A stretch of DNA of 63,843 nt, filler included, from Folioceros fuciformis (taxonomy: Eukaryota), in NCBI GenBank assembly GCA_049999805.1. It is 6 parts of 6 records of this genome, joined end to end, with 100 filler letters (N's around TTAATTAATTAA, not from the genome) between each part and the next. Parts side by side here need not be neighbours in the genome. Positions count along the whole stretch, not along the records: positions 56,915 to 63,843 come from JBNGIO010005501.1; 5 more parts are not named here. One strand, written 5' to 3'. Below, piece after piece: positions 4,722 to 63,843 of the stretch (position 1 is the first letter of the stretch; each line of letters starts with the position of its first letter). Made by a program: the position numbers and the translations under genes. The notes beneath the pieces were generated by a model. It ran no database searches. It had not been told where the DNA came from and saw only the letters and a program-made list of their open reading frames with translations.

Positions 4722-4821
4722 NNNNNNNNNNNNNNNNNNNNNNNNNNNNNNNNNNNNNNNNNNNNTTAATTAATTAANNNNNNNNNNNNNNNNNNNNNNN
4801 NNNNNNNNNNNNNNNNNNNNN
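4722..4821. other. Artificial scaffold-joining spacer
   Basis: 44 N + TTAATTAATTAA (stops in all six frames) + 44 N. Confidence 0.97.
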
Positions 4822-8272: not shown

Positions 8273-9533
8273 TGTGGTTGAAACCACCAAGGGGCCACAC
8301 TTCCCCTTATTATCGTTGCAGTCTTATGATTCGCTCCCAAGGGAGTGAACTAATGTCAAGGTTACCTACATCTCCCTAATCTCACCCTATCTATCAGCAC
8401 ATACCAAGTGCTATAGCAATAGGTCATAATTCTCGGTCCTGTCTTCGGCTCCTACCACAAAACCAACCCCAGCCTCAACAAAATGAGAACTCCAGCATTN
8501 NNNNNNNNNNNNNNNNNNNNNNNNNNNNNNNNNNNNNNNNNNNNNNNNNNNNNNNNNNNNNNNNNNNNNNNNNNNNNNNNNNNNNNNNNNNNNNNNNNNC
8601 TTCCAAAATCTGCAACTCAACCCTTCTCTCCTGCAATTTGGAACACAACAGCCTTCCCTCTTGCAGCCTTCAAGGCAAAGGCGAGGCCTAGGGCTGGGTA
8701 GCCTCCTTGGCTCACGGCCCTGCAACCTCACCTCAGCCAGCATGCAAGGTGGTCAGCCATTGCGGATCCGGCCACACGAATCTTGGCAGTCTTGGGATCC
8801 TCCACGTTCCCCTAGTGGCAAGGGAAATCAAGACCTTGGTTTAGTCTCAACCAGCTCAGCGCCCTAAGCCAGGAGTTCTGCACCCAAGGTCCAGGGAAAT
8901 CGCACCGTAGACAGCCCCTCCTCAATGGCAGGTCTAGCCTCTTATACTACCTTGGCCCAAACCTCCATCTCTATCTCTTAGGGTTAGCCTCAATCAACCA
9001 CCCAACAATCTCTCTCTGACCTAAGCCGGCCCTAATTCTGACCTAAACCTAACTCTGACCTAAGCCGGCCCTAATTCTGACCTAAACCTAACTCTGACCT
9101 AAGCTGGCCCTAATTCTGACCTAAACCTAACTCTAACCTAAGCTGGCCCTAATTTTGACCTAAACCTAACTCTAACCTAAGCCGGCCCTAAGTCTGACCT
9201 AAACCTAACTCTGACCTAAGCCGGCCCTAATTCTGACCTAATAGGTGTTGTGTCCCATGGACACCACTGGGTGCCCTTACCAAAATTGACCAACCTCTGA
9301 AGACTACCAAAATGGTCAGTGCCTCTCAACACTCTCCCTCCTCTCTCAAATCATTCCATCCCTTCTCTCAGATCATTCCAGCAACCCTTCAAAGATGCGT
9401 CTCGCCTTACCATTAATCTAGCTACTACTCTAACCTAATCTTTTAACCATTTCACCATAGGGTTCCCTTAGAGATTCCCAAAAAGAGAAATCCTACCATT
9501 TTCCAAGGACCTATTCAGCATGTGGAGTCCACA
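8273..9533 (-). mobile_element. Gypsy LTR (family A, short version, contains a gap)
   Basis: TGTGG...CCACA termini. Both ends and an internal ~170-bp block match the LTR at 38911-44791. Contains a 39-bp tandem array at about 9017-9240. Confidence 0.85.
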
Positions 9534-16731: not shown

Positions 16732-17335
16732 GGTTACCAAAGGGAGGTAGCCGAAGTTTGACGACGGTTGCCAAAGGGAGGTAGCCGAAGTTTGACGACG
16801 GTTGCCAAAGGGAGGTAGCCAAAGTTCGACGACGGTTGACGAAGGGGCTATCGGTAGTCAAGCAACAACGCCGGTTGCTGAAACCCCTACTTGCACTAGG
16901 AGGCCTGGAATAGCAATAATTGCAGCCAGAGTAACAGGAGGCAACTAGCATCTTGGGAAGAGAGAGAGTAGACGGCCAAGATGGGTCAGCCAGCAGCAGG
17001 AGTGAGATGGATATTTTTGGAAGGATTTGCCCAATCAACAGCATGGAAGGAGAGCCTAAAGATTTTGTGTGGTAGGGGAAGGTGGGCCAGAAGAATAAAT
17101 AGGAGGAGAGAGAGTGGCACCAAGGTAAGCCATGAGTGGTTGCATCTAGAAATAGTATTTAGATAAGATTTAGTAAGATGCTATTTTGACCTGGTGCTGC
17201 CTGCCATTAAGAGCATCTAGGAGGAAAGAGATTGGCGCTAAGGTAAGCTAGGAGTGGGTGCATCTGAAAATAGTATTTAGATAAGATTTAGTAAGATGCT
17301 ATTCTGACCTGGCGCCACCTGCCATTAAGAGCACC
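16732..17335. repeat. Short tandem and direct repeats in LTR-like sequence
   Basis: 34-bp unit GGTTGCCAAAGGGAGGTAGCCGAAGTTTGACGAC x3, and a ~95-bp direct repeat at about 17121 and 17239. Confidence 0.75.
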
Positions 17336-17778: not shown

Positions 17779-17878
17779 NNNNNNNNNNNNNNNNNNNNNN
17801 NNNNNNNNNNNNNNNNNNNNNNTTAATTAATTAANNNNNNNNNNNNNNNNNNNNNNNNNNNNNNNNNNNNNNNNNNNN
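17779..17878. other. Artificial scaffold-joining spacer
   Basis: 44 N + TTAATTAATTAA + 44 N. Confidence 0.97.
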
Positions 17879-27100: not shown

Positions 27101-27629
27101 TCATGGCAGAGGCTTAGAGCAATTAGACCTGCCTAGGGTGGGTGAGCAGCTACCACAAACATGGTTGGGACATGCTTTGGGGACAGTTGCCGTTACTACA
27201 CGGCAGCAGGGTGCTAGGGTTGCAATGCCTAGGTCATTCCAGCAGCTTCCACCAGGGTCTAGCGTACTAGTAAGAGGGGCAAATCATTTGCCTAAAGGAG
27301 ATCAGGTGGAACAAGGAGCTGACCAAGTTTCCAACAAGCGTCACAGGCTGGAAACACCCAAGCCTGATCAAGCTGTCCGATTACTGACTATGGTGTTAAC
27401 ACACAAGGAGCTGCTGAAGAGGGTACACAACGCACCCTTACTCAGCCTGCAAGATGTGAGGGTTGAAGAAGACACTGTGGGCATCATGTTGCAGCCTTCA
27501 AAGGCTGAGATGCCGCTGCCTTGTCGTGATCAGTTAGGCTTGATTCCCTTATTGCAAGCAAGAGGGTGCAAGCTGCACTACTGGCTTGTGAAAGCCAGGG
27601 TTTCCCAGTCGTACAACCCACAAATCGGC

Positions 27630-28020
27630 GCAAGGCCACAATTGGCAATGTGCTGGTGGACAATCGTGGCAGCCATGCGCTGGTGAATGGGTTTGCGCCC
27701 AGAGTAGTGTTGTTGGACACAAGGGCAAAGCTAGTCATCATAGGAAAGGTTCTAGCTGCCAGGCTGCGACTGGAAGGGAGTGCTTTACAGCCATCTCCCT
27801 GGAATATTCACACGGCATCAGGGGCTGTTGAACCTGTCAAAAGGGGAAACCACCCAACCAGTCAAGATTACTCTGAAGCCCAACATAGTGGATGAGGTGA
27901 GCTTGACGGTGCGTTGCCTGGTCACAGGGGCCACCAATTATGACATCCTGTTGGGATAGGAATTTTTGTTCCCTCTAGGAGTTTCCATTGACAACTGGAC
28001 AGAACAGGCCTTTTATAGGC
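27630..28020 (+). pseudogene. Retropepsin-like aspartic protease
   Basis: VLLDTRAKLVIIG (DTG motif mutated) and C-terminal YDILLG*EF. Confidence 0.75.
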
Positions 28021-28449
28021 TAGATTGGTAGCAAGGGGGAAAGTGCATTGCTTACCTGCCTTTGGATTTGCATGGCGCCACACAAGCAGCCGAGGCCACA
28101 CTGGTGGTAAGGCAGGCTTGCATGGTGCAGATCCAGCCATGGGAGGATGGGACGCCACCCTCATTACCACAAGACCATCGCGCTCAAGTATGGCTAGCTG
28201 AGTGTGGAGAGGACGAGGATATTCTTGTTCCTGATTCTGAAGAAGATGCGCTGGGAGCGCAGCTGCACTCGTAGGCCCCATTTGGGGTTCTCACAGCCAG
28301 GAAGGAGTGTCTGCAGCAAGCTCAAGAGACCGTCACTCATGTCATGCAAGTACTGCAGCGGGCTCTCACAGACCCAGCCACAGGGGAGACAGCAAATGTT
28401 TCTCCTATTCAACAGGCCGGCCGTCATTGCTTGGCAAGCTACACCACAA

Positions 28450-29400
28450 GGGGTTACCTTGGTGGAGCTGTTTGGGGGCCTGTGCACTGGTCTAGAGGCA
28501 GTGCTGAAGTGAGGCATCACTATTTCTAGATACATCTACTGTAATGGCTGCCCAGCTGTTAGGCACATTGCAATCTATCGAGTGCAATTGCTACAGCAGC
28601 AGTTCCCTCAGCAATTTTCTCGGCAGGCCAACAAGAGCATGTGTAGTGCTGTTCCACAGAACATTCGGTATATCCAGCAAGCACACGTCCAGGTCATTGG
28701 GACTGTGGATTTGCTTATCGCAGGATGGGAGTGCCAGGGTCTGTCCCAAGTTGGGAAAGGAGCAGGGCTGCACGATAGCCGTTCAGGCTTATTTAGAGAT
28801 CTGGTGCAAGTACTGCGATGGCTCCAAGATCAGCACCCACCAGTGGCTTACTTGCTGGAAAATACATCAGCTCAACTGGACGCTCGTCCACAGTTACGCC
28901 AAGACATGGGTGTCATTCAGCAGGTCATTGGCACGCCATTCACCATGGATGCTGCCCAAGTGGGCAGCTATGCTCACAGACTTAGGAATTACCGGACAAA
29001 TCTGGCCCCATTGCCTGTTATGAACTTGGCCTTACAGGAGCCGCTGCGGGACCCTACTTGACTCCTACAAGATGTGCTGGATGACAATCACACCCCCAAA
29101 CCTGTCACAGCCAAGGAGAGGGCCCCATGGTTTCCTACCAACACACCAGGTCAGCCAAGGAGGACTTTGCCTACAGTGGTCAGTTATCTTGGTTCCCTAT
29201 GCATATAGGAATAACGGCCCTGGCATGCTCTTTAATGAGGATACCAAGGTGTGGGACGAACCTCCAATGGAGGAGAGAGAACGGATAATTGGTTTTCATA
29301 CTCACAGCACAGCAGCACCCCAAGCCTACAGGGCACAAAGATTTGCAGCACTTGGCCGTGCTATGGATGTGAGTGCTTTGACTTGGCTGCTTAGCCTTTG
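28450..29400 (+). pseudogene. DNMT3-like C5 cytosine DNA methyltransferase domain within Gypsy pol
   Basis: Motifs in order: I LVELFGGLCTG, IV VDLLIAGWECQGLS (Cys codon 28732-28734), V SRSGLF, VI YLLENT, VIII AHRLRNYRTNL, IX EERERIIGF, X QRFAALGRAMDV. Two TGA stops (28510, 29059) and one frameshift near 29195. Confidence 0.9.
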
Positions 29401-29639
29401 TTTGGCTTTCCAGGTGTTCACTAGACCTCGGGACTACGTTTCCCACATCCAGACCCTGTCCTATCATCCGGATGCAGTTCATTTGCCATTCCTTGGATTT
29501 CGTTACCAAACCTATCAGCTCGATGCCGGGGGGGGGGGGGTGGCGCACATGTCTCCAAAACTTGTTTTTGTTGCGTTGGAGCTGGATTCAGGACTAGGAT
29601 TGTCAGCAGCCGTCAAACCTCCACCTATTACGGAGGCCT

Positions 29640-30175
29640 TTGATTGGATTGGCCTTCGGAACCTGCTTTCACAGTACTCGGACTGTTTTGTCCTGCTTTC
29701 GCAGTACTCGGACTGTTTTGTCCTGCTTTCGCAGTACTCGGACTGTTTTGTCTTCAGCATGAAGGATTTGAAGAGGTGCAATGTTATGATGTTCAAGATC
29801 AACCTCAACACTACTGAGTCGATCTATAGGCGCAGGTATAGGTTGAGCCAATCTGAATGGGAGATTGTGGAAGCACGCTGCCAAGAGCTGTATCCGGCTG
29901 GACTAATCAGACCTTCCAGCTCTGATTACGCAGCCGCTACCGTCCTTCCACCCAAGAAGGACAGCCAAGGCTTTTGGACTGAAAAGCAAATGTGTGGGGA
30001 CTACCGTCCCATCAATGGAGCAACAGCACTTGATAGGTATCCTATGCCTACGCCAAAAGAGTTGCTTGACAACATTGGACAGTCCAAATTCTTCTCTACG
30101 TTGGATTTGCGACAAGGTTTCAACCAGGTGCAAGTGGCAGAGGAGGATATACCCAAGATACCATTTCATGGAGCT
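29640..30175 (+). pseudogene. Gypsy reverse transcriptase, N-terminal half
   Basis: YRLSQSE..GLIRPSSSDYAAATVLPPKKD..MCGDYRPIN..DRYPMP..FSTLDLRQGFNQ. Same ORF (29072-30265) as DNMT motifs IX-X. Confidence 0.92.
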
Positions 30176-31260
30176 TGTGGGGGAAAATATTGCACACGGG
30201 GGTGCAGCGAAGTCCACACAAACCGTCGTTGTAGCCATGGGATCGAATCCCAGGGAATGATTTGATTTGTGCTAAATAACACAGGTTTTCCCACAAAGTT
30301 AATTACTATCTTGGATGGACTTTAATTATCCCAGCTCCACTACCCCCTGGTTCAACTACTGCTACTTCCGTTGCGGCTCAGCTACCACAACCCTAAGCTA
30401 CCTTATAGACTCACTCAGGGGGGATCGCTTCAACTACCAGCTTTTCAGCTACCCCGGACTACCTGCTTTTCAGCTACCCNNNNNNNNNNACTACCAGCTT
30501 TTCAGCTACCCCGGACTACCTGCTTTTCAGCTACCCCGGACTACCAGCTTTTCATCTACCCCGGACTACCAGCTTTTCAGCTACCCCGGGGGCACCTCTA
30601 CTAACCTAGCTCTTGACTACCTCGGTGGTAGTCATTACTGCACGACGAGGTTTGTCTCCACTACCTCGGTGGGGGCCCACTCTCAATCTCTTTCTATCTG
30701 TAACCCAGGTCACCACCTGCGGAGTCTAAACAGTACTTTCGGGGTTTACGCAACCCTTGGCCAGTTACGGCCCTCCAATCACCTACTCTAGCCACCGCTA
30801 TCACTCTTTCGCCACGGCCTTCGCACCCTAGAGACTATTCCACGGATCACACCCCCCTATGGTCACAACCCGGCCCAACTATGATTGCACACCCCCCTAT
30901 GGTCACAACGTGGCCCAACTATGATTGCACACCCCCCTATGGTCACAACCTGGCCCAACTATGATTGCACTGGTTTCCGCTCTTTACCCTAAATAGCCCC
31001 CACTTGGTGCAAACCTCGTTCTCTGAGACAAGCATTCACCAAGACCAGTCATGGACTTGCATGTTTCTCTACCTCTTACCACTCACAAATTATTCAATCT
31101 CCAGCACATACAACAATTCTTACACTTCTCGTCACAACTCTCTTCCCAGCGTCCTTCGTATGTTCCTCCGGTTCCCACACACTCACACATGCACACTTGC
31201 TGTTCCTCCGGTTCCCACACACTCACACATGCACACTTGCTCACTCACCGGACACAAAGG
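30176..31260. mobile_element. Gypsy-type LTR (family B) inserted into the RT
   Basis: TGTGGGGGAAAATATTG start homologous to 22075. Internal ~23-bp and ~39-bp tandem repeats. The right end is uncertain. Confidence 0.65.
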
Positions 31261-32390
31261 TGTGAACCTCCAAAGTTTGGGGTAGTGGTTTGTTTTGGTT
31301 GAAAAAGGGTTAATAGAAGTATGGTTTTGTTTTCTTTTTCTATGTATTTTTCTAATTTTCCTTTATTTTTTGGTCATTTTTCCTATTTTTCTTCCTTCGT
31401 ATGTTCCTCCGGTTCCCACACACTCACACATGCACACTTGCTCACTTACCGGACACAAAGGTGTGAACTTGCGGTAGTGGTTTGTTTTGGTTGAAAAAGG
31501 GTTAATAGAGATATGGTTTTGGGGTAGTGGTTTGTTTTGGTTGAAAAAGGGTTAATAGAGGTATGGTTTTGTTTTCTTTTTCTATGTATTTTTCTAATTT
31601 TCCTTTATTTTTTGATCATTTTTCCTATTTTTCTTTGCGCTAATTAATTTAATTGACCAGGAAATAATTAGATTTTGTTATTAGAGTGGGTATAGGTTTG
31701 GTACTGACCTGAGAAATTGGGTCTGGTACCGGACCATAGGGTCGGGAAAGTTTGAATCTAGGCTTGGTGATTGGTTTATTATTAATTAAAGATATATAAT
31801 ATTAAATGATTAAATAATAATAATAGTATAATAATACTAAATAATATGGGTAAATATAATGGGGTATGTCAGGGTTAGAGTCTATGTCTGGTTGGACTAA
31901 ACGGTCATGGAGGCCGTGACCTGCCTGGGGTAGGGGCTGCGGCCGCTCCCATTCCTCCCTCCCTTTCTCCCTTCCTCTTCATTTTCCTCTTGCCCCATTT
32001 CTTCTCCTTCTGCTTCCCTCTCCATCCCTTTGTCCCTCTTCTTCTTTTGGATCCACATTGCAGGTAGGGGAGGGATCCACATCGCAGATAGGGAAGGGAT
32101 CCTCGAGTGTTGGGAGTGAAGGCGACCGTATACCGCTGCCCTAAAGTTTGTGTAAAAGAGTCCCTGACTATATTGGTATTCGCTGCCCTGTGTAAGTATT
32201 CGCTGCCCTAAAGTTTGTGTAAAAGAGTCCCTGACTATATTGGTGTTCCATACCATATCGTATCGGTATTCCATAATGCACTTAACGTTGACAAGCCTTA
32301 ACTGAAATTCTCTTTTTTCTTATGGCGGCTGACAAGCAATTATCTGTTTTGTATATCTAAACTGAAACATAAAGTTACTACCTAATATCC

Positions 32391-32697: not shown

Positions 32698-32797
32698 NNN
32701 NNNNNNNNNNNNNNNNNNNNNNNNNNNNNNNNNNNNNNNNNTTAATTAATTAANNNNNNNNNNNNNNNNNNNNNNNNNNNNNNNNNNNNNNNNNNNN
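32698..32797. other. Artificial scaffold-joining spacer
   Basis: 44 N + TTAATTAATTAA + 44 N. Confidence 0.97.
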
Positions 32798-47872: not shown

Positions 47873-47972
47873 NNNNNNNNNNNNNNNNNNNNNNNNNNNN
47901 NNNNNNNNNNNNNNNNTTAATTAATTAANNNNNNNNNNNNNNNNNNNNNNNNNNNNNNNNNNNNNNNNNNNN
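47873..47972. other. Artificial scaffold-joining spacer
   Basis: 44 N + TTAATTAATTAA + 44 N. Confidence 0.97.
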
Positions 47973-53763: not shown

Positions 53764-54887
53764 CTAGCGGACTCAAACACATTCGTGCGCTGAGTCTCAG
53801 AGAGTGACCCTGACACAAAACTTCCAAAAACTCAATTCATGCTGGCATTAATTGTTCAGCTCCTAAGAGCACGACGGGTTGTGACATCGAATACTTGCAT
53901 ACAAGGTCCCATCAACTCCGTCAGGAGAACCCCTACGGCGCTAGCTTGCCAGTCTGCTCAATAGGAAAAGACTTCCCACAACTAAGGTTTCTCCTCGACT
54001 GCTCTGCACTTAGTTGCTTCGTCGCCACTTGTCCCGATGATGTTCTCCCCCTCATCCACACGCTTCACACCAGTGTTGCACTTTGCATCAGTGGCTCGTC
54101 CTTGCTCCAATGTGTCTTCACGTGTTCAGGTTGATCCAACCACTCCTCCACCTCGCTGCTCAAGCGTGAAGGCCATCTTGCAATTGCTTGTTGGTACAGC
54201 AAGTATTGGCTTAAGCATGCCTGTCAGCTGACCTTGTTCTCACGGCTTAATGAACTTCTAAACTAACAGCCAACCTAGCTTAACAAACTATTAAGCTAAC
54301 AGCCAGCATAGCTGTGGAAGCAAAACCCCGGGCACTGATTGCCGACGGGTTCCACCTTTNNNNNNNNNNNNNNNNNNNNNNNNNNNNNNNNNNNNNNNNN
54401 NNNNNNNNNNNNNNNNNNNNNNNNNNNNNNNNNNNNNNNNNNNNNNNNNNNNNNNNNNNCCTACAGCGGACTCAAACACATTCGTGCGCTGAGTCTCAAA
54501 GTGTGACCCCGACACAGAACTTCCAGAAACTCGGTTCGTGCTGACATTAATTGTTTAGCCCCTAAGAGCACAACGGGTCATGACACTGAATACTTGCATA
54601 AAAGTTCCCATCAGCCCTGTTAGAAGCACCCCTACGGCGCTAGCTTGCCAGTCTGCTCAACAAGGAAAGACTTCTCACAACTAAGGTTTCTCCGCGACCG
54701 CTCTGCACTTAGCTGCTTCGTCGCCACTCGCCCTGATAATTTTCTCCCCTCCATCCCCGCGCTTCACATCAGTGTTGCACTTCTGTTCAGTGGCTCCTTG
54801 CAGTTGCTTGCTGGTACAGTATATATTGGCTTAAGCATGCATGTCAGCTGACCCTGCTCTCACAGCTTAATGAACTTCTAAACTAAC
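53764..54887. repeat. Two diverged direct copies of a ~450-500 bp sequence (53764-54270 and 54460-54887)
   Basis: Shared from GCGGACTCAAACACATTCGTGCGCTGAGTCTCA to TGAACTTCTAAACTAAC. The second copy is cut by the LTR at 54888. Confidence 0.85.
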
Positions 54888-55134
54888 TGTAGATAAATCT
54901 AGGATCGATTAGGTGAGAGAGAGAGATTTAGGCAAAGAATTAATTATATTGTTTGAGCCGGTGGCTCTTTAAGCGCGGCCACGTGACGGTTGGTCGCGTC
55001 CCATGGCATGGATGCCGGTTAGGGTTTGGGGTGCGTCATTTTGACGCACCCATTACGATCTACCATTTCGGGGTTTTAATTTAATTTACCTAATTATGCT
55101 TTCTACTTAAATATGTGACCTAGCATTTTCTACA
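54888..55134 (-). repeat. 3' LTR (247 bp) of the minus-strand Copia, PPT at 55135-55144
   Basis: TGTAGA...TCTACA termini. TAAGTGGGAG precedes it on the minus strand. The left end coincides with the break in the flanking repeat copy. Confidence 0.8.
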
Positions 55135-55233
55135 CTCCCACTTAGGAAGCATAACTTGACGAACGTGTTCGTTGCTGCAGTTCCGTTGCGCCGCTAAGTT
55201 TCCGCTAGGGTTGCCGACGTTCTGCCACTGAAG

Positions 55234-55695
55234 ATGGACACTTTGACAGTTCTCGTTCTTGCTCAGTCCGCTGTTCTGGTGATGCTCGTCATCCACGCCT
55301 TGTGGCGCTCCAGGAGGCCGTGTCAACTTTGCGTTGATTTTTTCTAAGCTGCGATCCCTGGAGGATGAGCTTGAGGCTGCGCACTCGCGCTGGCGGCACG
55401 CTCAAGAGTACCCACAGCTAGTTCCAGGTGCTCCCTTCCGATATCTTCCCAACTGCTCCGACAAATTCATGTATGCAGGCAGCGAGTTTGCTGAAGACGG
55501 CAGGTTGATACTCCGCTACGGTGATTCCTTCTTGCCTTGCCTCCCACTGACTTGCTTTTCCACCCAGATTGCAGCTGACTTGGCTTGCTTCGTGTTCTTG
55601 CAGAACCTTGGTACAAATGCACCACTGTCATGCCCTTTCGCCGCTTCAGAGACTGGAGGACTGTAGGGTTAGGTGGTCAAGATGATGCTACCTAA
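55234..55695 (+). pseudogene. Spliced antisense accessory gene inside Copia (copy 2; intron 55521-55603)
   Basis: Hydrophobic N-terminus plus CQLC, one-base frameshift in a T6 run, then a GT..CTGAC..TTCTTGCAG phase-1 intron giving ..LILRY-E-PWYKC..QDDAT*. Stop is 14 bp from the pol stop. Confidence 0.55.
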
Positions 55696-55709
55696 GAATG
55701 GTGTGCAGT

Positions 55710-56598
55710 CTAGGTGTCAAGCCTTTCTACGAGCCCCATGGCCCGATAGAATTTTTCATGCTTGTCTCTTGGAAGAGCTTTTGTCAGTAGGTCGGCTACA
55801 TTCTCGTCTGTAGGGCAGTACTGCAGGTTAGCATTCCCCTCGCTAATGACTTGTCTAATAAAATGATGCTTGATGTCAATATGCTTTGTACGAGCATGCA
55901 TCATTGGATTTCTGGCTAGAGCAATGGCCGATTGGTTATCGCAAAGAAGTAGGGTTGGAGCAGTTTGTTGCTCTCCCAGAGATGCTAGCAGTCCTCTTGT
56001 ATAGACCACGTCTTGTGCTGCTTGAGCAGTAGCTGTGTATTCTGCTTCTGTTGAAGACAGGGCGACAACGTGCTGTTTCTTGCTATACCACCCGACTATG
56101 GTTGCTTCAAACTGGTTCTTCCCCAACATCAAGCAGTTTGCTGAGATTGAACGTCGGGTGTCACTATCTGCTGCCCAGTCAGCGTCGAAGAAGCAGGTAA
56201 GTAGCAGCAGCTCAGGTCTTTGCTTGTACAGCAGGCCCAAGCCTTGTGCTCCTTTTAGATACCTCAGAATGCGCTGTGCAGCTACCCAGTGAGCAGTCCC
56301 GTAGTTTGTCAAGAACTGCGCTGTGGCTCCCACTTCATGGGATAACTCTGGCCGAGACTAGTTTCTGCAATAGATGAGGGGTGCACACTACAGACCTGTA
56401 TGGAACAGACTCCATTTTCTGCCTCTCATCCTCTGACTTTGGGCACTGGTCTTGGGAGAGTTTGTCCCCTACAGCCATAGGAGTAGCTGCTGGTTTGCAA
56501 TCTTGCATTCTGACTAGGACTTGCTTGATAAACTGTGTTTGATGAATGTACACAGTATGTGTGGCCAGGTTCCAGATAATCTGGACACCTAGGAAGTA
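55710..56598 (-). pseudogene. Copia RT C-terminus and RNase H
   Basis: VPYRSVV, RILRYLKG, FFDADWAADSDTRRS, WYSKKQHVVALSSTEAEY, CDNQSAI, HARTKHIDIKHHF, ADLLTKAL. Confidence 0.92.
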
Positions 56599-56814
56599 GG
56601 TGAGTTTAGGGTTTAGGGTTCATGATGGGGTTCATTCAGGTCTATGGGTTCACCCTCCTCATGTACTAGGAAAGAACTGTATGTTAATGGGGGGTTTTGC
56701 CATTCACTTGGGGAGGAGGTATGTCTCCTTCAACCTAAGTTTGTGCCCCTACGAAATGCAGGTTCAGGTTCAACACCTTCTGTTGCAGCCTGCATGCTTT
56801 CAGTGCTTTCATTT

Positions 56815-56914
56815 NNNNNNNNNNNNNNNNNNNNNNNNNNNNNNNNNNNNNNNNNNNNTTAATTAATTAANNNNNNNNNNNNNNNNNNNNNNNNNNNNNN
56901 NNNNNNNNNNNNNN
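56815..56914. other. Artificial scaffold-joining spacer
   Basis: 44 N + TTAATTAATTAA + 44 N. Confidence 0.97.
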
Positions 56915-57196
56915 GAGCGTGAGGCCCGGTCGCGAGCCGCCAAGGCCCGGCGCCGCGCTGTGTGCAGCGACGCGGCTGCGAGCGTGCAACCCGCGGCCAC
57001 GCGACGAAGCACCGTGCGCGACGGGAATTTGGCGGTCGACGCGGCCGGAACTTCTGTCGCGATTTTGATTGCTGCTGCAGGTCTTCAGATTCTGTTGCGG
57101 CCATCAAAAATTCCTGATTCCAGAGCGCTTCATGTGGGCGCTCCCGCTGATCCACAAATTGTGGGCTTTTGCTGATTTGCAGATGGTAATCCGAAG

Positions 57197-58415
57197 ATGG
57201 CAATCGGTGAAGTCCCCGTCGATGGCGAAGCTCCTGCTGATTTGGAAATTCAACGTACTTGGTCCCTGGCCAACGGCGATGTGTGGGTACCGGGTGCCGA
57301 TGAAGTCGAAGCCGCTGCTGACCAAACGTGGGAGGAGACCAAATGGGGAGATGAGCTGGATTTTCCCACTAGAACTCCAAACAGATGGTACCCATCTCCT
57401 CTTCGTAGGAAAAGATTGTCGCTCTCGTCGCCTTCTAGGAGTCGGAGCTGGAGTGAAGATGAGAATTTGCCGGGTTGCCGACTTGAGGTCTCGTCGAAGC
57501 TGTCCTTCTCTTTTGACGAGACATGGTGTGATGACTTCGACATTGATGAAGAGGACTCCATGGTGGGAGTCCAAGCCGATGTTGAAGATGCTCCTCACAG
57601 ATCTGTGTGCGAAGGAAGTCCAAGCTGGTGGTCTGCTCCCGTCGTCAATGATGATTTCGCTGACGCCAAAAGTGCCAATGATCTCCACAAACTAGCCTCT
57701 GGTATGTTAACCTGTTTGCATATATGCTACAAAGTGATAGATAGCATGTATACTAATGGGATGATCCATTGGCAGATCTAGCGGCTGGAGGACTTCAGAT
57801 GGATGAAACTGAAGACACAAGGGGAAAATGGAAGGGCAAGAGCAAGGTGGTAGCAGAGAGTAGTGGAAAAGAAAGTAAGTAGGAATAGGAGGTAGGATGC
57901 TCCTATTTATAAGGATAAAGGTTTTTTTTTTTTTTTGCTTAAAAGAAACTATGTGGTTGTAGGGATGGACAAGTGTGTGGGCACGGATCACTTGAGGATT
58001 GCTATCCCACAAAGAGTGGTCCCTGAAGCAACAAGGACAGGATATGCAATACCTGGCTGCTATCTTCCTATGGGAAGTTTGATGAAAGCTACCCACTTGA
58101 TATGCCCTGGGGATAAGGATAGTTACTATGCCCCAGCAGAATATGTTTGCCATAAAAAAGGAATCAAAATGGTATGGTTGGGAGCTGCCCCATGTGTTGA
58201 GTATGAAGGGCACACTAAACATACTTATAGTAAGTACCCTAATGCCATTTATGACTTAAATAGCATTTATTTATTTATTTTTATATTAACATGACTCCTA
58301 AATTTTGTGAATAGGATCTGTCTGGGCATTGGAGCGAGAAGCTCAGGAATACTATGAAGACTATTTAGAAATAGAAGAGGAACTTGATCATTTGGACAAA
58401 CTGTGTGGCTTGTAG
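57197..58415 (+). CDS. Four-exon gene antisense to Copia pol (copy 3), 323 aa, unknown function; exons 57197-57701, 57776-57874, 57963-58229, 58315-58415
   Basis: Three GT-AG phase-1 introns (74, 88 and 85 bp; donors GTATGT, GTAAGT, GTAAGT; TACTAAT branch site in intron 1) give an uninterrupted 972-nt frame. The 5' end may extend further. Confidence 0.7.
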
Positions 58416-58465
58416 CCAAGGTTAACTTTTAGTTGCCCACTTATGTTCCTCTATAGCTAGCTGAG

Positions 58466-61400
58466 TTAGGGTGGCTTAGACTTGATATCTAGTATCCCTA
58501 AACTCTTCATGTGCTTGCTATGTAAATCACGACCTAATGACTTGGTTAATATATCGGCCGGATTTTCTTGAGTTTGGATGTAATTTATGTCTATTGTTTT
58601 GTTTTCTAGCATTTCACGAATGTAGTGGTATTCAATTGCTATGTGCTTTGTTCTGGAGTGGAAGACGGGATTTCTAGCTAGGGCTATGGCCCCTTGACTA
58701 TCACTGAACAAAGGTGTGGGATTATGTTGGGGGTGACCAAGTTCGCCCAAGGTTAACCTACACCAAACTATATCTTATGAGACTGAGGTTAGGACTCTAT
58801 ACTCAGACTCAGTGGATGACAAAGCAATTGTAGGTTGTTTCTTACTTGACCAAGAGATTGGAGCACCTCCCAATAGTAGAACATAGCCAGATACAGATTT
58901 ACGGGTGTCTGGATCACCGGCATAGTCAGCATCAGCATATGCTGTTAGGATTAAATTGGGTATGCTGGGTTTGTACTTGTAAGTCAATCCAGTGTGCATA
59001 GTTCCTTTTAGGTATCTGAAGATACGTTTGACTGATAGCCAATGTTCCCTTCCAGGGTTCTCTAGGAACTATGAACATGCACTAACTTCAAAAGAAATGT
59101 AGGGTCTTGTGAAGTTACTTAAGTAAATCAGGGTGCCAACAGCATGTCTATATGGTACTGCTGACATCTCATGCTTCTCCGTATCTGTTTTAGGGCTCAT
59201 ATCTGAGGTGAGCCTAATGCCACTAGCAAAGGGGGTAGTGGCCGGCTTGGCTTCTTCTAATCCAAATTTTGTTAAACTCTCTTTAAATATACTTAGTCTG
59301 AACTAAGCTTAGAGTTTTGTTGCCTCTATCCCTGATGATATTAACGCCAAGGGCATAAGTCATCTCTCCGAGATCAGTCATCTCAAAATGACTTCGTAAC
59401 CATGCCTTGATTTCAGCTAGGAGGGATAAGGCAGATGAGGCCATAAACAAGTCGTCGACATAAAGTAGAAGGTAAATTATATCACTTCCTGATTTCAATA
59501 TGTACATGCTAGCATCGGCTTTGCTTCGTTTGAAGCCACGATTAACTAGCTTGACATGTATGACGACATTCCATTCTTTGCCTGATTGCTTCAGGCCATA
59601 AATGCACTTAATAAGTTTGCACACCCAATTTTCTTTTCCCTTGACCTCATAGCCCTCAGGCTATCTCATATAGATCTCCTCTTGTAGACGTCCATGCAGG
59701 TAAGCTGTCTTGACGTCCATCATGTGGAGGTGAAGGTCATGTTGTGTGGTTAAGGCTAAGATCATTCTTAGGGAGGCAAACTTGGCAACTGGTGCATAAG
59801 TGGCATGGGGTGGATAATCTAAACCAGGGATCTGGGTAAACCCTCTAGCCACTAATCGTGCCTTGTATCTCTCAATGGAACCATCACCGTTTCGTTTGAT
59901 TTTGAATACCCACTTGCTAGTCACTATTTTTCTGCCCTTAGGTGGTTTCACCAATTCCCATGTCGAGTCTTTAACTAATGAGTTATACTTAGAATCTACT
60001 GCTACTTTCCACAAGTCTTTCTCTGGAGAGGAAAATGCTTGTTTCAAGGTCAGAGGCTCTTCGGGATCAACAGTGGCTTTATAGACAGCCTGGTGAAAAA
60101 GGGAGAAGGGAGAAATAGGATCATCAATGGTAGCAAGGTATCCCAGGGGTGGTTCTTTCCATCCTGCTGGTCCTGAAATAACTGGTCTAGTTCTCAGGTT
60201 GTACCTTGGTGCAGGTTGTTTCATCATCAACGGCGACCTCTTCATGAGCTGGTTCGTATATAGGAGAAGCAGGCTCATCTTCGACCAGATAATCATCCTC
60301 AAGAGGTTCTTCAGTATCCTCTGCATCGGGGATGTCCTCAAGGTGTTGAGGTTCTTCGGTATCGGGATCCGGAGTTGTGGGTCGACGAGGGCGTCGAGGG
60401 ATATGTAGCTCCTCCTCCTCCTGCAGTATAGGTGCAACAACAGGAACAGGAACAGGAGCAGGAGCAGGGACAATATGTTGAGTTATGAAATCATTATCAT
60501 CAAAAGAGGAGTACTCGGGGTTCTCAGGAGGAAGAACATCATGAGTAGTGTCCGCAGGAGCTCCCACTGAAGGTGAAAGTATGTGGGACTCATTAAAAGT
60601 GACACTCCTGGCATATAAGAGCTTCCTGGTAGCAGGATCAAATAGTTTGTATCCTTTGATGCCTTCTGTGTAGCCAATGAAAGTATACTTGGCTGCCTTA
60701 GGATCTAGCTTCTTTCGCTGTGCTTTAGGTATAAAGACATAAGCAGGAGATCCAAAAACTCGAAGATGGTCGATTGAAGGCTTCCGACCAATAAAGGCTT
60801 CATAAGGTATCATACCTTGGACTGCAGATGTCGGAAGTCTATTGATGAGATAGGTTGCTAAAAGCATGGCCTCTGCCCAATAAGTCTTGGATAATTTAGC
60901 TTGGGAGAGCAAGCAACCTGTGATCTCTTGAAGGCGTAGGTTCTTATTCTCTGCTACGCCATTTTGCTGAGGTGTATGTACAACGGTGAGTTGTTGAGCT
61001 ATGCCTTCAACTCGACAAAAATCAGCAAATTCATGAGATGTAAACTCTCCTCCATTGTCAAAACGGAGGGTCTTGAGTTTTTTGTCTGTAAGTCTCTCGG
61101 CCCACATCATGTAGTCCTTGAAAAACTGAAAGGCTTGGCTTTTGTGTTTCAGGATGTATGTGAGGACAAAACGAGAATAATCATCTATGAATGTTAAGAA
61201 ACATCTACAACCGGTAAAGGATGGTGCAGAAATAGGGCCGTAAATGTCTGTGTGGACCAACTCAAGGGGTGCTGTGGCCCACTGGGGAGAGTGGTTGTGG
61301 AAGGGAGCCTCGTGCCTTTTGGTGGTGACATAGGCTTCGCACCAGGATAGGGGTTCTATCTTGGATAGGGAAGGTGTTCTATAAAAATTTCCCTTAGACA

Positions 61401-62991
61401 TTTGGATGAGTTTTTGGCTATTAGGATGACCTAGTCGGCAATGCCAAAGTGTGGTGTTGGAGGAGGTGTCAGAATTGTGGGTGGCTACATTCATGCTATG
61501 TAAGGGACCCACTTGGACGGATAGTTTGTATAGGCCGTCCTCTAGTGTGCCGGAGCAGATAGTATGTGACTTACTTGTGAGATGGGAAATAAGACAATTA
61601 TCTGCATGAAGAATGACTAAGCTAGCAGCAGACACTAGATTTTTACACATGGATGGTACGTGAAGGACATGGGAAAGAGAGAGAACTTGGCCTGAAGAAC
61701 ATCTGAGAGCAACTGAACCTACACCAGAGATGGGGAGGTTGTGATCATCGCCCAGTAGGACAGTCTGGTGTCCTGTGGCTGGCGAATAAGACTCAAAAGA
61801 GTTTTTGTTGTGACAGATATGTGATGTAGCTCCACTGTCTAAATACCAATATTGGTTTGATGGCTTTGATGATGCCATGCAGACAGTGAGAGCTGCCGGT
61901 GTTGTGGAAGATTGTTTCTTCACTACAACATGCGCTCCAAAGGCGGCCTCCTTCCTAGGCTCGCCGTTCTTCTTTTTCTTGCAGTCCTTCTCCATATGGT
62001 TCGGAATTCTGCACCAATTACAAATAACTCCAGTCTTCTTATTACCTCTTGCAGGTGCTGAAGAAGACGAATATTCACCGCCCTGTGAATATTGGTTGGG
62101 ATTGGGTCGTGAAGAAACAGGTCCTCTGCCGCGACCTCGGCCTCGACCTCTTCCTCTACCCCTTCCAGTGAACATCACCTGCTGTCTGGTTGATCTGGAT
62201 TCATGTCGACGACTTTGGTCCTCCTGTATGATTGCTCCAATCAATTCGGTGACGCTTAAATCCAAACTGGCATCACCTGAGGCTTCATGATTTCTCTAAG
62301 CACCTCGGAGAACTGCATTTTGAGTAGTCACGAAAGCCCTGTAGGAGGGTGGTAGAGAGGCGAGAAGAGTCATAAAACAGGATTGTTCGGTCAACTTGGT
62401 GCCGAATGCTGCTTCAAGGTTGGACTTGGCCATTCGGAAAATGCTGATATGATTGTCAATGGAGTCATTCTTTCTCATCTTGAGATTATGAAAATTGCGG
62501 GTAGCTGACAACAAGCTCATTACATCCTTAGATGAATATAACTGGGCAAGGCGGTCCCACATATCCTTGGAGGAATCGGCTTCAGAAACTTGGCGAACCA
62601 TGGATTCAGTAAGTCCACTCACTAGAATATCTTGGGCCTTCTGATCCTTATTGTCCCATTCTTCTATAGAGTCGAATCCCCACATGGGACGATCATTGGA
62701 ACCACTCACTATATCCCATAGTTCATGCTGCCGCAATACTCCTTTCATGCGAATACTCCATACATCATATCCTTTTCCATTGAATCTATCCTTTTCCTTA
62801 AAGCTATCTCCATGAACCACTGTCGTTGACGTCTTTGGATCATATTTGAGTTTTTCTTTCTCTTTAGCCTTTTCGGCTTCCCAACTCTTCTTCTCATCTT
62901 CAAGCCATTTGGCCTTTTGCTCCTCTAGCCACTGCTTTTTAACTTTTTCAAGTTGATTAATATCGGAGTCGTCAACATTCACTCTAGCCAT
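58466..62991 (-). pseudogene. Near-complete Copia gag-pol (gag, PR, IN, RT, RH) with few disablements
   Basis: FKEKDRFNG, RG repeat, CNWCRIPNHMEKDC, WYLDSGATSH, WHCRLGH, PQQNGVAE, YKARLVARGF, MDVKTAYL, LYVDD, YADADY, RTKHI, ADILTK. In-frame TAG at 62296, frameshift near 60200. Confidence 0.95.
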
Positions 62992-63002
62992 CGCAGGTGA
63001 GT

Positions 63003-63698
63003 TCAAAATAGACGATTAATTTGTCCGATAGGCGCACTTGGTTTCCGATCGCCGCGGGCGGAGAAAGGACATGCACATTCGGAGCAGATCATCTCGGCTT
63101 GGTCAGCTATATTTACTAGAATATCTGTCTCATCATCAAAATCAGAATCTCCTTTGGGAAGGAGCCTATCTAGATGATCTCGAATATTGCTAATTTCTTG
63201 TTGCAAAAAGGCAAAGTTAGAATGATTGGATTTTTGGGTAAGTCTAATGTTACTCTTTATGCAACCAAGAGTTTCTAGCAAATTATTCAAGCCGGGAAAT
63301 GAAGGGCCAGCAACCAAGTTAGGAATATGTTGAAGAGTTAATTGGATTGCAGAAACTTGCAACAAATCAAAAGAGGTAAGTAGATCTTGTCTAGCAAGTC
63401 TAATCAAATTCCCTTGATCTGGTGACTTAATCAAAATAGATCCAATGAAATTAGCAACTTGTTTAGAGACTACTTCAAGCTCTTCACAGCCATGCACTTT
63501 GTTGTTTTTGTGGTCCTTCTGTCCCTTCTCTTGCCTTGCAGCCTTGATATTTCTCCAAACTCCTTGTTTAGTGGGATTTGGTGAATTCATGGTGCAAGGG
63601 CAAGGATTTGATGCACAATTTGTGCATCCTGAAAGTATGATGCTGAGCTTGATCCATTTGCTGCCAAAGGCGAGATCTCCAGCGCATAGAAGTTCCAT
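63003..63698 (-). CDS. Extra ORF (231 aa) between PBS and gag, unknown function
   Basis: Open frame in element-sense orientation, ending 11 bp before the gag ATG (62991). Cys clusters CTNCASNPCPC and CSECAC. Confidence 0.5.
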   Translation of the reverse strand: MELLCAGDLAFGSKWIKLSIILSGCTNCASNPCPCTMNSPNPTKQGVWRNIKAARQEKGQKDHKNNKVHGCEELEVVSKQVANFIGSILIKSPDQGNLIRLARQDLLTSFDLLQVSAIQLTLQHIPNLVAGPSFPGLNNLLETLGCIKSNIRLTQKSNHSNFAFLQQEISNIRDHLDRLLPKGDSDFDDETDILVNIADQAEMICSECACPFSARGDRKPSAPIGQINRLF

Positions 63699-63784
63699 TT
63701 AAAGATCTAATTGGAAAGGAGGCATAGGAGAATGGATGCCTTAGGAGAAAATAGGAAAGTAGCTCTAGCATCAAGAGCAAAGCT

Positions 63785-63796
63785 GCTCTGATACCA
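63785..63796 (-). promoter_or_regulatory. tRNA-iMet PBS (5' LTR begins at 63797, runs off window)
   Basis: TGGTATCAGAGC on the minus strand, abutting the LTR terminus. Confidence 0.88.
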
Positions 63797-63843
63797 TGAT
63801 GAAAATCATGCTAAGCTCTAGCATAAAAGATGCTTGCATTACA

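Follow-up and report, generated by a model that had tools for sequence, protein, structure and literature searches.

Antisense extra genes located between pol and the 3′ LTR (aORF-3R) have been described in LTR retrotransposons, including maize Grande (gene23), rice RIRE2, Silene Retand, Phaseolus PvRetro13 and Botrytis Boty (PMC7264820, PMC11963269). An earlier note on the DNA analysed here held that antisense extra ORFs are known mainly from Gypsy elements, and the available text of both papers agrees (Grande, RIRE2, Retand). No clear similarities are described for any antisense extra-ORF protein in the accessible part of PMC7264820, where the authors call for looking at 'antisense and spliced transcripts'.

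We analysed a 63,843-nt stretch of DNA from Folioceros fuciformis (the window), which consists of pieces of six contigs with five linkers between them and contains a four-exon gene lying tail-to-tail with a Copia element. Like an aORF-3R, this gene follows pol and runs antisense to it, and its product has no database relatives. However, the plant hosts of aORF-3R genes are Ty3/Gypsy elements (Tat/Retand-type) while the neighbour here is Ty1/Copia, and the gene has three introns, whereas no intron-containing antisense ORF is described in the available text of PMC7264820 or PMC11963269. In the sources as available, gene23 has been shown to have its own promoter, which is only presumed here, and a nuclear location has been reported for its protein, with which a basic cluster in the protein here is compatible. 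The gene is set beside gene23, RIRE2, Retand and PvRetro13 by description, not by sequence; library-wide protein searches gave no true match, but ORFs of this kind often lack annotation. A literature search for intron-containing antisense genes in Copia elements found no report, which is not proof of absence.

Copia elements with antisense promoters are known from apple (Mdoryco1-1) and Arabidopsis (AtRE1), and these are Ty1/Copia elements with antisense transcription, but the portion of PMC7264820 available describes promoter activity rather than a spliced protein-coding gene. Outside plants, the sources mention the antisense genes HBZ of HTLV-1 and APH-2 of HTLV-2, both deltaretroviruses (PMC7264820, PMC11963269). 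These differ from the gene here in belonging to animal retroviruses, in having their promoter inside the 3′ LTR and in lacking any sequence relation to it; HBZ is a bZIP protein, whereas the gene here has no bZIP or other Pfam domain. What they would share with it is an antisense gene that lies at the 3′ end of a reverse-transcribing element, has its own promoter and encodes a nuclear regulatory protein and, in the case of HBZ, splicing on the antisense strand as well.

Two further systems deserve comparison: gene transduction by LTR retrotransposons, as in maize Bs1 (PMC7264820), and the SIRE-type Copia lineage (named in PMC11963269). Bs1 resembles the locus in that a cellular-looking gene lies inside or next to an LTR element in one or few copies, but a sense-captured gene of this type loses its introns, whereas the gene here is antisense and has kept them. 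SIRE elements have a sense env-like ORF after pol. They are thus Copia elements with extra coding capacity downstream of pol, but their ORF is sense and membrane-protein-like, whereas the gene here is antisense, spliced and acidic.

The four-exon gene and its product

Four exons on the plus strand are joined by three phase-1 GT-AG introns into one stop-free frame of 972 nt (323 codons plus stop), within the span that the earlier note had given (Table 1). Its account of the product was equally accurate: the acidic, Ser-rich N-terminal half contains 36 D+E and 20 S in its first 168 residues, the Cys/His-containing C-terminal half contains 6 C and 6 H in its last 122 residues, and the quoted C-terminal peptide stretches are present as written. 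The exons have a GC content of 0.53–0.42 versus the lower values of the introns, and a TACTAAT motif lies ~20 nt ahead of the acceptor of intron 1. Codon-position bias (purine at position 1 = 0.65, GC1 > GC2 = GC3) is similar to that of the Copia ORFs. The locus has the canonical exon-intron structure and open frame of an ordinary host protein-coding gene.

Table 1. Features of the gene-bearing contig and its left-hand linker, in window coordinates.
Feature	Position	Strand	Details
Assembly linker	56815..56914	.	N44 + TTAATTAATTAA + N44; adjacency to left-hand sequence not demonstrated
GC-/CpG-rich 5′ flank	56915..57196	+	GC 0.62, CpG o/e 1.29; putative promoter and 5′ UTR
Exon 1	57197..57701	+	ATG at 57197; 168 codons + 1 nt; acidic, Ser-/Trp-rich; CpG o/e 0.83
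Intron 1	57702..57775	+	74 nt, GTATGT...CAG, phase 1, GC 0.37
Exon 2	57776..57874	+	99 nt
Intron 2	57875..57962	+	88 nt, GTAAGT...TAG, phase 1, GC 0.31, T15 tract
Exon 3	57963..58229	+	267 nt; 5 Cys and 5 His in 88 whole codons
Intron 3	58230..58314	+	85 nt, GTAAGT...TAG, phase 1, GC 0.24
Exon 4	58315..58415	+	acidic helix-like tail; TAG stop 58413-58415
Spacer between the two stops	58416..58465	.	50 nt
Copia pol	58466..62295	-	natural stop 58466-58468; 3 in-frame stops, 2 frame changes
Copia gag	62296..63015	-	ATG at 62990; Retrotran_gag_2 (1.2e-30), DUF4219
Extra sense ORF (uORF) between PBS and gag	63006..63698	-	231 codons; no family match
Primer binding site (PBS)	63785..63796	-	TGGTATCAGAGC, exact; directly after ...TCATCA
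Last 47 nt of presumed 5′ LTR	63797..63843	-	remainder outside window

We searched for the longest stop-free path while allowing only GTAWGT donors, AG acceptors and introns of 60–150 nt. On the plus strand of 56915-58465, the longest path is 992 nt with 3 introns, a length that 0/60 dinucleotide-preserving shuffles reach on either strand (largest 890, median about 335). GTAWGT occurs exactly three times on the plus strand of the locus, each time as one of the gene's donors; the entire window has 37 on the plus strand and 27 on the minus strand. Among 162 real strand-windows of 1,551 nt, the locus has the biggest splicing gain (387 nt; the next is 234 nt), and it alone gains from a second and a third intron. 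Chance does not come near this model, and as a model the four-exon gene is real.

The minus strand of the locus shows no splicing gain (587 nt with 0–3 introns), and ORFs of that size occur in about 4/60 shuffles. It has two long ORFs, one of 182 codons (58255-57707) beneath exon 3 and one of 195 codons (57691-57104) beneath exon 1; both are exactly codon-aligned with the plus-strand frame, as in the usual RNY mirror. For this mirror, purine at codon position 1 is 0.51, versus the higher value of the plus strand, and splice signals and AT-rich introns exist on the plus strand only.

Upstream of exon 1, the 5′ flank contains out-of-frame ATGs at 57132 and 57183, which would hamper translation if they are part of the 5′ UTR. 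An acceptor-like ttgcag in phase 1 ends at 57182, so an upstream exon is possible.

Protein searches were run exon by exon. None of the four exon peptides matched a Pfam family above the cut-off (only BOP1NT appeared, at E = 0.26, below it), and word-indexed protein searches found no relative among the candidates scored (0/4 for exon 3; 0/86 and 0/895 for exon 1). A full HMMER scan of 1.84 billion representative proteins with exon 3 returned 6 matches at E <= 0.001, each made up of 5–9 matched stretches. Four were fetched and all four are tandem-repeat proteins, the other two being Listeria-Bacteroides repeat proteins; we rejected the six because they are summed weak matches to internally repetitive proteins. 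A PDB sequence search with the gene found nothing below E = 0.39, the 288 pattern matches of exon 3 in metagenome contigs included none that was confirmed, and viral contigs yielded none with exon 3. In the Atlas, exon 3 was placed with bacterial hypothetical clusters (best 0.94) and exon 1 gave nothing usable. Exon 3 had a recognition score of 2981 and exon 1 a low 1051, to be read against a mark of 2300 that 91/100 known proteins reach and whose exceeding is weak evidence.

Orthologues or paralogues outside transposons were found neither in Pfam, PDB, the protein libraries, the Atlas and the metagenome contigs nor in the window. By sequence comparison, the protein is an orphan with no detectable relative in the databases searched. 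AlphaFold2, run without an alignment, gave no confident fold for exon 3 (pLDDT 39.1). The N-terminal half is probably disordered, and exon 1 encodes a single RRKR cluster at residues 70-73.

The Copia neighbour, the junction and related contigs

On the minus strand, pol carries Pfam domains in the order Pol_BBD protease, gag_pre-integrs, rve, SH3_retrovirus and then RVT_2 (matches at 1e-29 and 9.9e-28). Its last 199 codons have no Pfam match and are 45–53% identical to the pol ends of the other Copias in the window; this end is RNase H-like, and pol is complete to its natural C-terminus. A search of viral contigs with the pol end found one irrelevant locus (L001, 44% identity over 32 residues), and no member of the element's family turned up in metagenome or viral contigs. 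The order gag - protease - integrase - RT - RNase H is that of Ty1/Copia, as is the position of the primer binding site beside the 5′ LTR end (...CA); we take the TGGTATCAGAGC motif to be a plant-type initiator tRNA-Met site. The neighbour is a decayed Ty1/Copia LTR retrotransposon.

The damage to gag-pol that the earlier note had reported can be located. An in-frame stop at 62296-62298 divides gag from pol, further in-frame stops lie at 59661-59663, 59069-59071 and 58775-58777, and the frame changes within 60190-60482 and 59283-59302, so that there are four stops and two frame changes in all. That gag-pol is broken while the gene is intact was correctly observed, but the contrast between them is not significant. 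With six lesions per 4,550 nt of gag-pol, 1.3 are expected in 972 nt and the probability of none is about 0.28–0.34, and therefore an intact gene beside a broken gag-pol carries no weight.

The uORF is a second non-standard coding region that the element already has. A PDB search with it found nothing below E = 0.17, its 187 pattern matches in metagenome contigs included none that was confirmed, and AlphaFold2 without an alignment gave a pLDDT of 30.5.

The distance of 50 bp between the gene's stop and the pol stop, which the earlier note had given, is exact. With the gene on the plus strand and pol on the minus strand, the gene is antisense to gag-pol and downstream of pol, which is the aORF-3R position. 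Because only 50 nt separate the stops, the 3′ end of the gene's mRNA must run into pol antisense; past the gene, the plus strand has TGTAA at 58521 and 58579 and no AATAAA. Elsewhere in the window, a plus-strand ORF of similar appearance (55283-55666) has its end 43 nt away from where pol stops in a second Copia fragment. This ORF has no Pfam match and no similarity to the four-exon gene, and no splice structure was seen in it.

From the pol stop as far as position 56915, where the contig starts, we found neither a 3′ LTR nor a convincing PPT. The contig begins there because the linker occupies the preceding positions, and a 3′ LTR is not visible because this start is 282 nt upstream of the gene's ATG. 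A 37-nt LTR-end probe matched the window at up to 3 mismatches only at 63797-63833, no direct repeats of at least 40 nt involve 56915-63843, and no TG-start after a purine tract was seen on the minus strand of 56915-57260. Consequently, without a second LTR or a clear PPT, the Copia copy is either incomplete or extends beyond the contig. Two candidate boundaries were rejected. TGATGG at 57106-57101 on the minus strand mirrors the LTR end CATCA, a 5-nt match expected by chance about once per four such regions, and a PPT-like stretch of the spacer, weakly purine-rich on the minus strand (13/17), was not significant.

LTR-size direct repeats were sought in 54000-63843 and in three of the six linker-delimited contig pieces, one of them split at a plain 100-N gap (54360), and only tandem arrays were found there. 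Rfam at its gathering threshold gave 0 matches in 54000-63843, and short repeats within 56915-58700 included nothing meaningful. The window's remaining retroelements are all fragmentary and lack paired LTRs, and therefore truncated Copias beside unrelated DNA are common here.

We also compared the stretch with contigs from sequencing runs of two organisms, A (runs X1 and X2) and B (run X3). An X1 contig of 1,579 nt spans 57050-58628 with 0 differences and an X2 contig spans 57623-58628, which shows that the junction of gene and pol was not created by the assembly. The two contigs derive from the likely source sample, however, and are not independent of the assembly. Another organism A contig, common to X1 and X2 (depth 9.5 and 8.6), matches the stretch in collinear patches, first ending at 58386 (within exon 4), then at 58520-58555, at 58683-58720 and from 58817 on. 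This layout suggests a Copia copy that has diverged but still has exon-4-like sequence past its pol stop. Apart from this 36-nt patch, organism A has no other long contig at least 85% alike on the gene. Gene bins in organism A have a depth of 14.8–15.9 versus 14.8 for the source contig, but the bins of the uORF and gag N-terminus are equally deep (14.6–17.7) and therefore gene-bin depth does not discriminate, contig depth not being copy number.

Of the 274 X3 contigs aligned with the stretch, 38 match it at 99% or more. X3 contigs on 58070-58531 extend over exons 3 and 4, intron 3, the spacer and the end of pol; at least two forms occur, one with T>A at 58250 and one joining 58243 to 58362 with 8 other letters. 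Coverage is zero on 56915-57607, which includes exon 1, and also on part of gag (62459-62689), and the gap over exon 1 is evidence neither way. The patches and the X3 matches come from short contigs, and they give weak hints that exon 3, exon 4 and the spacer may belong with the Copia family. No run recorded as RNA contains the stretch; a further run (X5), guessed to be RNA, contained 9 short, unlike pieces, none of them informative for the junctions.

Origin of the gene

We tentatively favour the explanation that the gene is an antisense accessory gene carried by the element, comparable to those of Grande, RIRE2 and Retand but unusual in belonging to a Copia element and in having introns, and we place it slightly short of an even chance. 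The gene would sit in the 3′ internal region of the decayed Ty1/Copia element, past pol and ahead of a 3′ LTR that would lie beyond the contig start, and its own CpG-rich promoter (about 56915-57196) would drive it in the direction opposite to the element's genomic RNA. Introns that are antisense to such an RNA are not spliced from it. The three introns would therefore never be removed, because the gene is antisense to that RNA, and would survive reverse transcription; the earlier note had argued in the same way, and its reasoning is sound as general knowledge. The gene's mRNA would end inside the antisense of pol, and each transcript would consequently overlap the 3′ end of the element RNA.

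The predicted product combines an acidic Ser-/Trp-rich N-terminal half, the RRKR cluster, a small Cys/His segment and an acidic C-terminal helix, and it may be a regulator that works in the nucleus and affects how the element itself is expressed or silenced. The role as an anti-silencing factor suggested in the earlier note is speculation for a protein with neither relatives nor a confident fold. We infer the gene's membership in the element, promoter, expression, nuclear location and function. The tight packing of the two stops would favour an internal gene, since a random truncation and a random gene end must otherwise coincide within about 50 nt.

The first alternative, which we consider rather unlikely, is an orphan, lineage-specific host gene flanking a Copia from which the PPT and 3′ LTR have been lost, so that their contact is a deletion accident among many transposon remnants. 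CpG content bears on it in both directions. There are 64 CpGs in 56915-57664 (o/e 0.83–1.29) versus 3 in 57665-58529 (o/e 0.12). Exon 1 and the 5′ flank thus resemble a CpG island, as a host gene may, and differ from the Copia sequence (o/e 0.45). This 5′ part looks like an unmethylated island of the kind found at host genes, or like sequence of a different history. However, the gene's 3′ two-thirds are even more CpG-poor than the Copia, which argues against a host origin.

Further observations also fit a host gene: neither LTR nor PPT lies beyond it, organism A has no other long contig at least 85% alike on exons 1-3, the window holds no second copy of the gene, and every other retroelement in the window is fragmentary. 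Yet a deletion accident requires two breakpoints in a 50-nt interval with both stop codons spared, and a four-exon gene of 323 codons with no relative among so many representative proteins is uncommon. The contigs of the second organism, otherwise matching Copia at 99% or better, cover exon 3, exon 4 and the spacer, and the diverged organism A contig has its exon-4-like patch collinear with the pol end; both speak for the element.

An improbable alternative is a one-off or chimeric gene, in which either a single copy transduced a host gene, or exons 3-4 of the element were exonised onto an unrelated CpG-rich exon 1. Either way, the gene would not be general to the family. CpG and GC shift sharply at about 57665-57700, the border of exon 1 and intron 1, and the contig link to the Copia family reaches exons 3-4 only. 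Transduced genes occur in one or few copies, according to the available part of PMC7264820, and all three introns are in phase 1, so that exons are freely combinable. Against such an origin, three strong in-phase donors and a single open frame over a fortuitous junction are unlikely without selection, and neither the window nor the protein libraries contain a parental host gene or paralogue.

Least probable of all is that the locus is not a functioning protein gene but a decaying pseudogene, an untranslated antisense unit or a small minus-strand env-like extra ORF, for although the long minus-strand ORFs, the lack of relatives and of a confident fold, the low Atlas score of exon 1 and the upstream out-of-frame ATGs would agree with it, the minus-strand ORFs behave as a mirror of the plus frame, gain nothing from splicing and are matched in size by shuffles, and the Atlas score of exon 3 exceeds the mark, itself weak evidence.

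Returning to an element-borne accessory gene, we can draw a fuller picture that is conceivable but doubtful: a Copia lineage, at least 99% shared by two organisms, would carry both the uORF and a four-exon antisense gene as accessory genes. The latter would have an unmethylated, CpG-island-like promoter and introns that persist since they are antisense, its Trp-rich acidic product would act in the nucleus on element transcription or small-RNA silencing, and the tail of its mRNA would pair with the 3′ end of the element RNA.

Little is understood of the extra genes that LTR retrotransposons carry: in the account available from PMC7264820, their proteins lack known relatives and any established role. 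If the gene is a host orphan beside a truncated element, the finding is ordinary and adds another unannotated gene to those in unplaced, repeat-rich contigs. If it is an accessory gene of the element, it would show that a retroelement can carry a gene together with its introns and that Copia elements, like complex retroviruses, can bear regulators under promoters of their own; it would also offer a specific protein whose influence on silencing or transcription can be examined.

A spliced gene model on the strand opposite Copia pol

We confirmed the spliced antisense gene model proposed in the earlier note, with coordinates that are exact: on the plus strand, four exons and three phase-1 introns form a single 972-nt frame of 323 codons and a TAG stop, and its translation contains the peptide stretches that had been cited. 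The start ATG lies in a favourable context (A at -3 and G at +4), and the introns are far richer in AT than the exons (GC content of 0.24–0.37 vs 0.42–0.53).

Features of the gene, the neighbouring Copia element and one further retroelement of the window
Feature	Position	Strand	Details
Exon 1	57197-57701	+	
Exon 2	57776-57874	+	
Exon 3	57963-58229	+	
Exon 4	58315-58415	+	
Introns 1/2/3		+	74, 88, 85 nt; all phase 1; donors GTATGT, GTAAGT, GTAAGT; acceptors CAG, TAG, TAG
Mirror ORF under exon 1	57104-57691	-	195 codons; Copia sense strand
Mirror ORF under exon 3	57707-58255	-	182 codons; Copia sense strand
Presumed 5' LTR		-	first feature of element; last 47 nt, ends ...CA
Primer binding site (PBS)	63796-63785	-	exact TGGTATCAGAGC
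uORF, between PBS and gag	63698-63006	-	231 codons, stop-free, unexpected; stop 63003-63005
gag	start 62990	-	other frame than uORF; Retrotran_gag_2, DUF4219
pol domains, in order		-	Pol_BBD protease, gag_pre-integrs, rve, SH3_retrovirus, RVT_2
RNase H-like pol end		-	similar to pol ends of other Copias in window
Natural pol stop	58466-58468	-	50 nt from the gene's stop
In-frame stops breaking gag-pol	62296-98, 59661-63, 59069-71, 58775-77	-	four
Frame changes breaking gag-pol	within 60190-60482 and 59283-59302	-	two
Aspartic-protease-like ORF	27530-27892	+	weak; before methylase segment
PF00145 ORF	28513-29058	+	
ORF after methylase segment	29024-30262	+	weak RVT_1 match

The longest stop-free path was found by dynamic programming, in which every jump had to leave at a GTAWGT donor and land on an AG acceptor 60–150 nt downstream. 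Across 56915-58465, the plus strand supports paths of 626, 632, 956 and 992 nt when zero, one, two or three introns are used, and the minus strand supports 587 nt at every intron number. The 992-nt path was matched on either strand in none of 60 dinucleotide-preserving shuffles (largest 890 nt, median about 335 nt). GTAWGT occurs three times on the plus strand of the locus, each time as one of the gene's donors, and 37 and 27 times on the plus and minus strands of the 63.8-kb window. Among 162 strand-windows of 1,551 nt from the real window, the gene locus gained most by splicing (387 nt; runner-up 234 nt), and it alone benefited from a second and third intron. The runner-up, 2991-4009 (+), contains ORFs of 179 and 175 codons that one GTAWGT intron can link, for a path of 761 nt instead of 527 nt; no convincing Pfam family was found there (ATP1G1_PLM_MAT8, 26.0 bits, below the cut-off of 26.9).

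Codon positions in the gene are coding-like and similar to those of the Copia ORFs (purine at position 1 of 0.65; GC1, GC2 and GC3 of 0.57, 0.45 and 0.45). The minus-strand ORFs under exons 1 and 3 are in exact codon register with the plus-strand frame. An RNY-biased coding strand usually gives a codon-aligned mirror ORF on the opposite strand, and we therefore rejected both as genes.

The decayed Copia element and its upstream ORF

Read on the minus strand, the sequence from 63843 to 58466 constitutes a Ty1/Copia element. Its gag-pol is broken at six places, and its pol stop faces the gene's stop at the distance that the earlier note had reported. The note had also contrasted this broken pol with the intact gene; that contrast carries no weight because zero lesions are expected by chance with a probability of 0.28 (six lesions in 4,550 nt of gag-pol predict 1.28 for 972 nt), or 0.34 without counting the gag/pol stop. 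Its interpretation is partly supported, retaining the gene model, its position and the broken pol, but losing the argument from intactness.

A chance origin of the uORF is very unlikely because the sequence is only about 40% GC. Searches of the uORF yielded no Pfam family, PDB relative, confident fold or metagenome relative, and contigs from the public sequencing run of organism B (X3) cover it densely.

Relationship of the gene to the element

At somewhat below an even chance, the gene may be an element-borne antisense accessory gene, lying after pol and ahead of the 3' LTR. Two points count for this reading: pol extends fully to its own stop, with the gene's end packed tightly against it, and the element already holds one non-standard ORF upstream of gag. 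We aligned contigs from public runs to 56915-63843. The gene–pol junction is bridged by contigs of two runs of organism A, both from the likely source sample (X1, 1,579 nt, 57050-58628, 0 differences; X2, 1,006 nt, 57623-58628), and an assembly artefact was rejected. Another contig, common to X1 and X2, shows a patchy, collinear alignment that breaks off within exon 4, at 58386, and resumes at 58520-58555, 58683-58720 and from 58817, a hint of a diverged Copia copy that would keep exon-4-like sequence after pol. Besides this contig, with its 36-nt patch, no other long contig of organism A is at least 85% alike on the gene; the uORF and the gag N-terminus likewise lack one, so this absence is not discriminating.

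Two more hints of an element-borne gene come from X3. Of its 274 aligned contigs, 38 are at least 99% alike to 56915-63843. Its contigs also span 58070-58531, which reaches from exon 3 into the end of pol, and they do so in two or more forms: one has a single difference at 58250, and another has 8 letters replacing 58244-58361. At the PBS/LTR end (place 63789), organism A contig depths, which are not copy numbers, sum to 234.8 in X1 vs 14.6 over the uORF. Together, this depth and the 38 organism B contigs could point to shared recent activity of the Copia family or to its transfer.

An orphan host gene adjoining a truncated Copia is the unlikely but better-placed rival. All other retroelements in the window are fragments without paired LTRs, so truncated elements abutting unrelated DNA are common here, which counts against an element-borne gene. 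From the pol stop to position 56915, where the contig starts, neither a 3' LTR nor a convincing PPT could be placed, and DNA to the left is not physically adjacent because an N44-TTAATTAATTAA-N44 linker lies there. It counts against a host gene that the PPT and LTR would have had to be lost through breakpoints inside the 50-nt interval, with both stops spared.

It is improbable that the gene was captured as a one-off, or that exonisation joined a CpG-rich exon 1 to element-derived exons 3–4. CpG dinucleotides number 64 in 56915-57664 vs 3 in 57665-58529, with observed/expected ratios of 1.29 in the flank, 0.83 in exon 1, 0.12 in 57665-58529 and 0.45 in the Copia. This sharp split counts among the points against an element-borne gene. 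It would fit two sequences of different history meeting near the border of exon 1 and intron 1, and also an unmethylated promoter island, which could belong to a host gene or serve as an antisense promoter carried by the element. That the locus is not a functional protein gene is quite improbable.

Elsewhere, five linkers of N44 + TTAATTAATTAA + N44 (4722-4821, 17779-17878, 32698-32797, 47873-47972 and 56815-56914) introduce stop codons into every one of the six frames. The window appears to string together separate contigs of about 9–15 kb each, so neighbours across a linker need not adjoin in the genome; plain N runs of 10 and 100 also occur. A second, unrelated Copia fragment at 55710-56619 (-) has a pol end 45–50% identical. 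A 127-codon plus-strand ORF, 55283-55666, ends 43 nt from its pol stop, and 54900-55499 is CpG-rich; the ORF has no Pfam match, likeness to the gene or evident splice structure. Tandem arrays occupy 8968-9279 (39-nt period, about 310 nt), 17091-17326 (a 118-nt unit, twice) and 31276-31635 (118-nt units at 31276, 31468 and 31518). The retroelement at 27530-30265 (+) carries a C-5 cytosine DNA methylase segment (PF00145, E = 3e-8, 33.9 bits vs a cut-off of 22) after a 467-codon ORF without a family, and is reminiscent of the Gypsy-Dnmt3 elements of the charophyte Klebsormidium nitens described in passages of PMC5890265.

The protein, its possible action and known systems

In the databases searched, the protein's sequence matches nothing known. 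None of the four exon peptides matched a Pfam family; a word-indexed protein library gave no scoring candidate (exon 3, 0 of 4; exon 1, 0 of 86 near and 0 of 895 longer); and no relative of the exon peptides was found in the PDB, the Atlas, metagenome contigs or viral contigs. A full HMMER scan of 1.84 billion representative proteins with exon 3 returned six matches, all rejected as relatives since each sums 5–9 weak matches to an internally repetitive protein. AlphaFold2 on exon 3 alone was unconfident (pLDDT 39.1).

Residues 1–168 include 36 D+E, 20 S and 9 W, vs 3.6 W predicted from base composition (Poisson P = 0.011), and a single basic cluster, RRKR, lies at residues 70–73. An acidic, helix-like tail closes the C-terminal 122 residues, among which are 6 Cys and 6 His. 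DDFDIDEED and other acidic-hydrophobic stretches resemble viral acidic activation motifs, and Trp within acidic, Ser-rich disorder is reminiscent of Argonaute-hook regions; both are leads only.

The gene's position, orientation, structure and lack of relatives are shown; the possible mechanism that follows is our inference. Transcription would start from the CpG-rich region 56915-57196, and the introns would survive by being antisense to the genomic RNA undergoing reverse transcription. The mRNA would end inside antisense pol and overlap the element's RNA; no AATAAA follows the gene's stop, and TGTAA occurs past it at 58521 and 58579. In the nucleus, the acidic, Trp-rich protein with its basic cluster and Cys/His segment would influence how the element is expressed or silenced.

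Passages of PMC7264820 and PMC11963269 describe antisense extra ORFs between pol and the 3' LTR in Grande, RIRE2, Retand, PvRetro13 and Boty, a nuclear protein with its own promoter for Grande gene23, and one or few copies for transduced genes. Parts of a 2025 review place extra ORFs in most LTR lineages (PMC12786077), and Copia elements with antisense promoters, Mdoryco1-1 and AtRE1, are named in a portion of PMC7264820. The literature searched, mostly at listing level, held no account of a Copia carrying an antisense gene with introns. The locus offers a gene model that is clean, unannotated and suggestively placed. Were the gene not the element's own, the finding would be ordinary; if it is, the novelty would lie in finding together a Copia as host element, three introns in the gene and possibly another extra ORF towards the 5' end.
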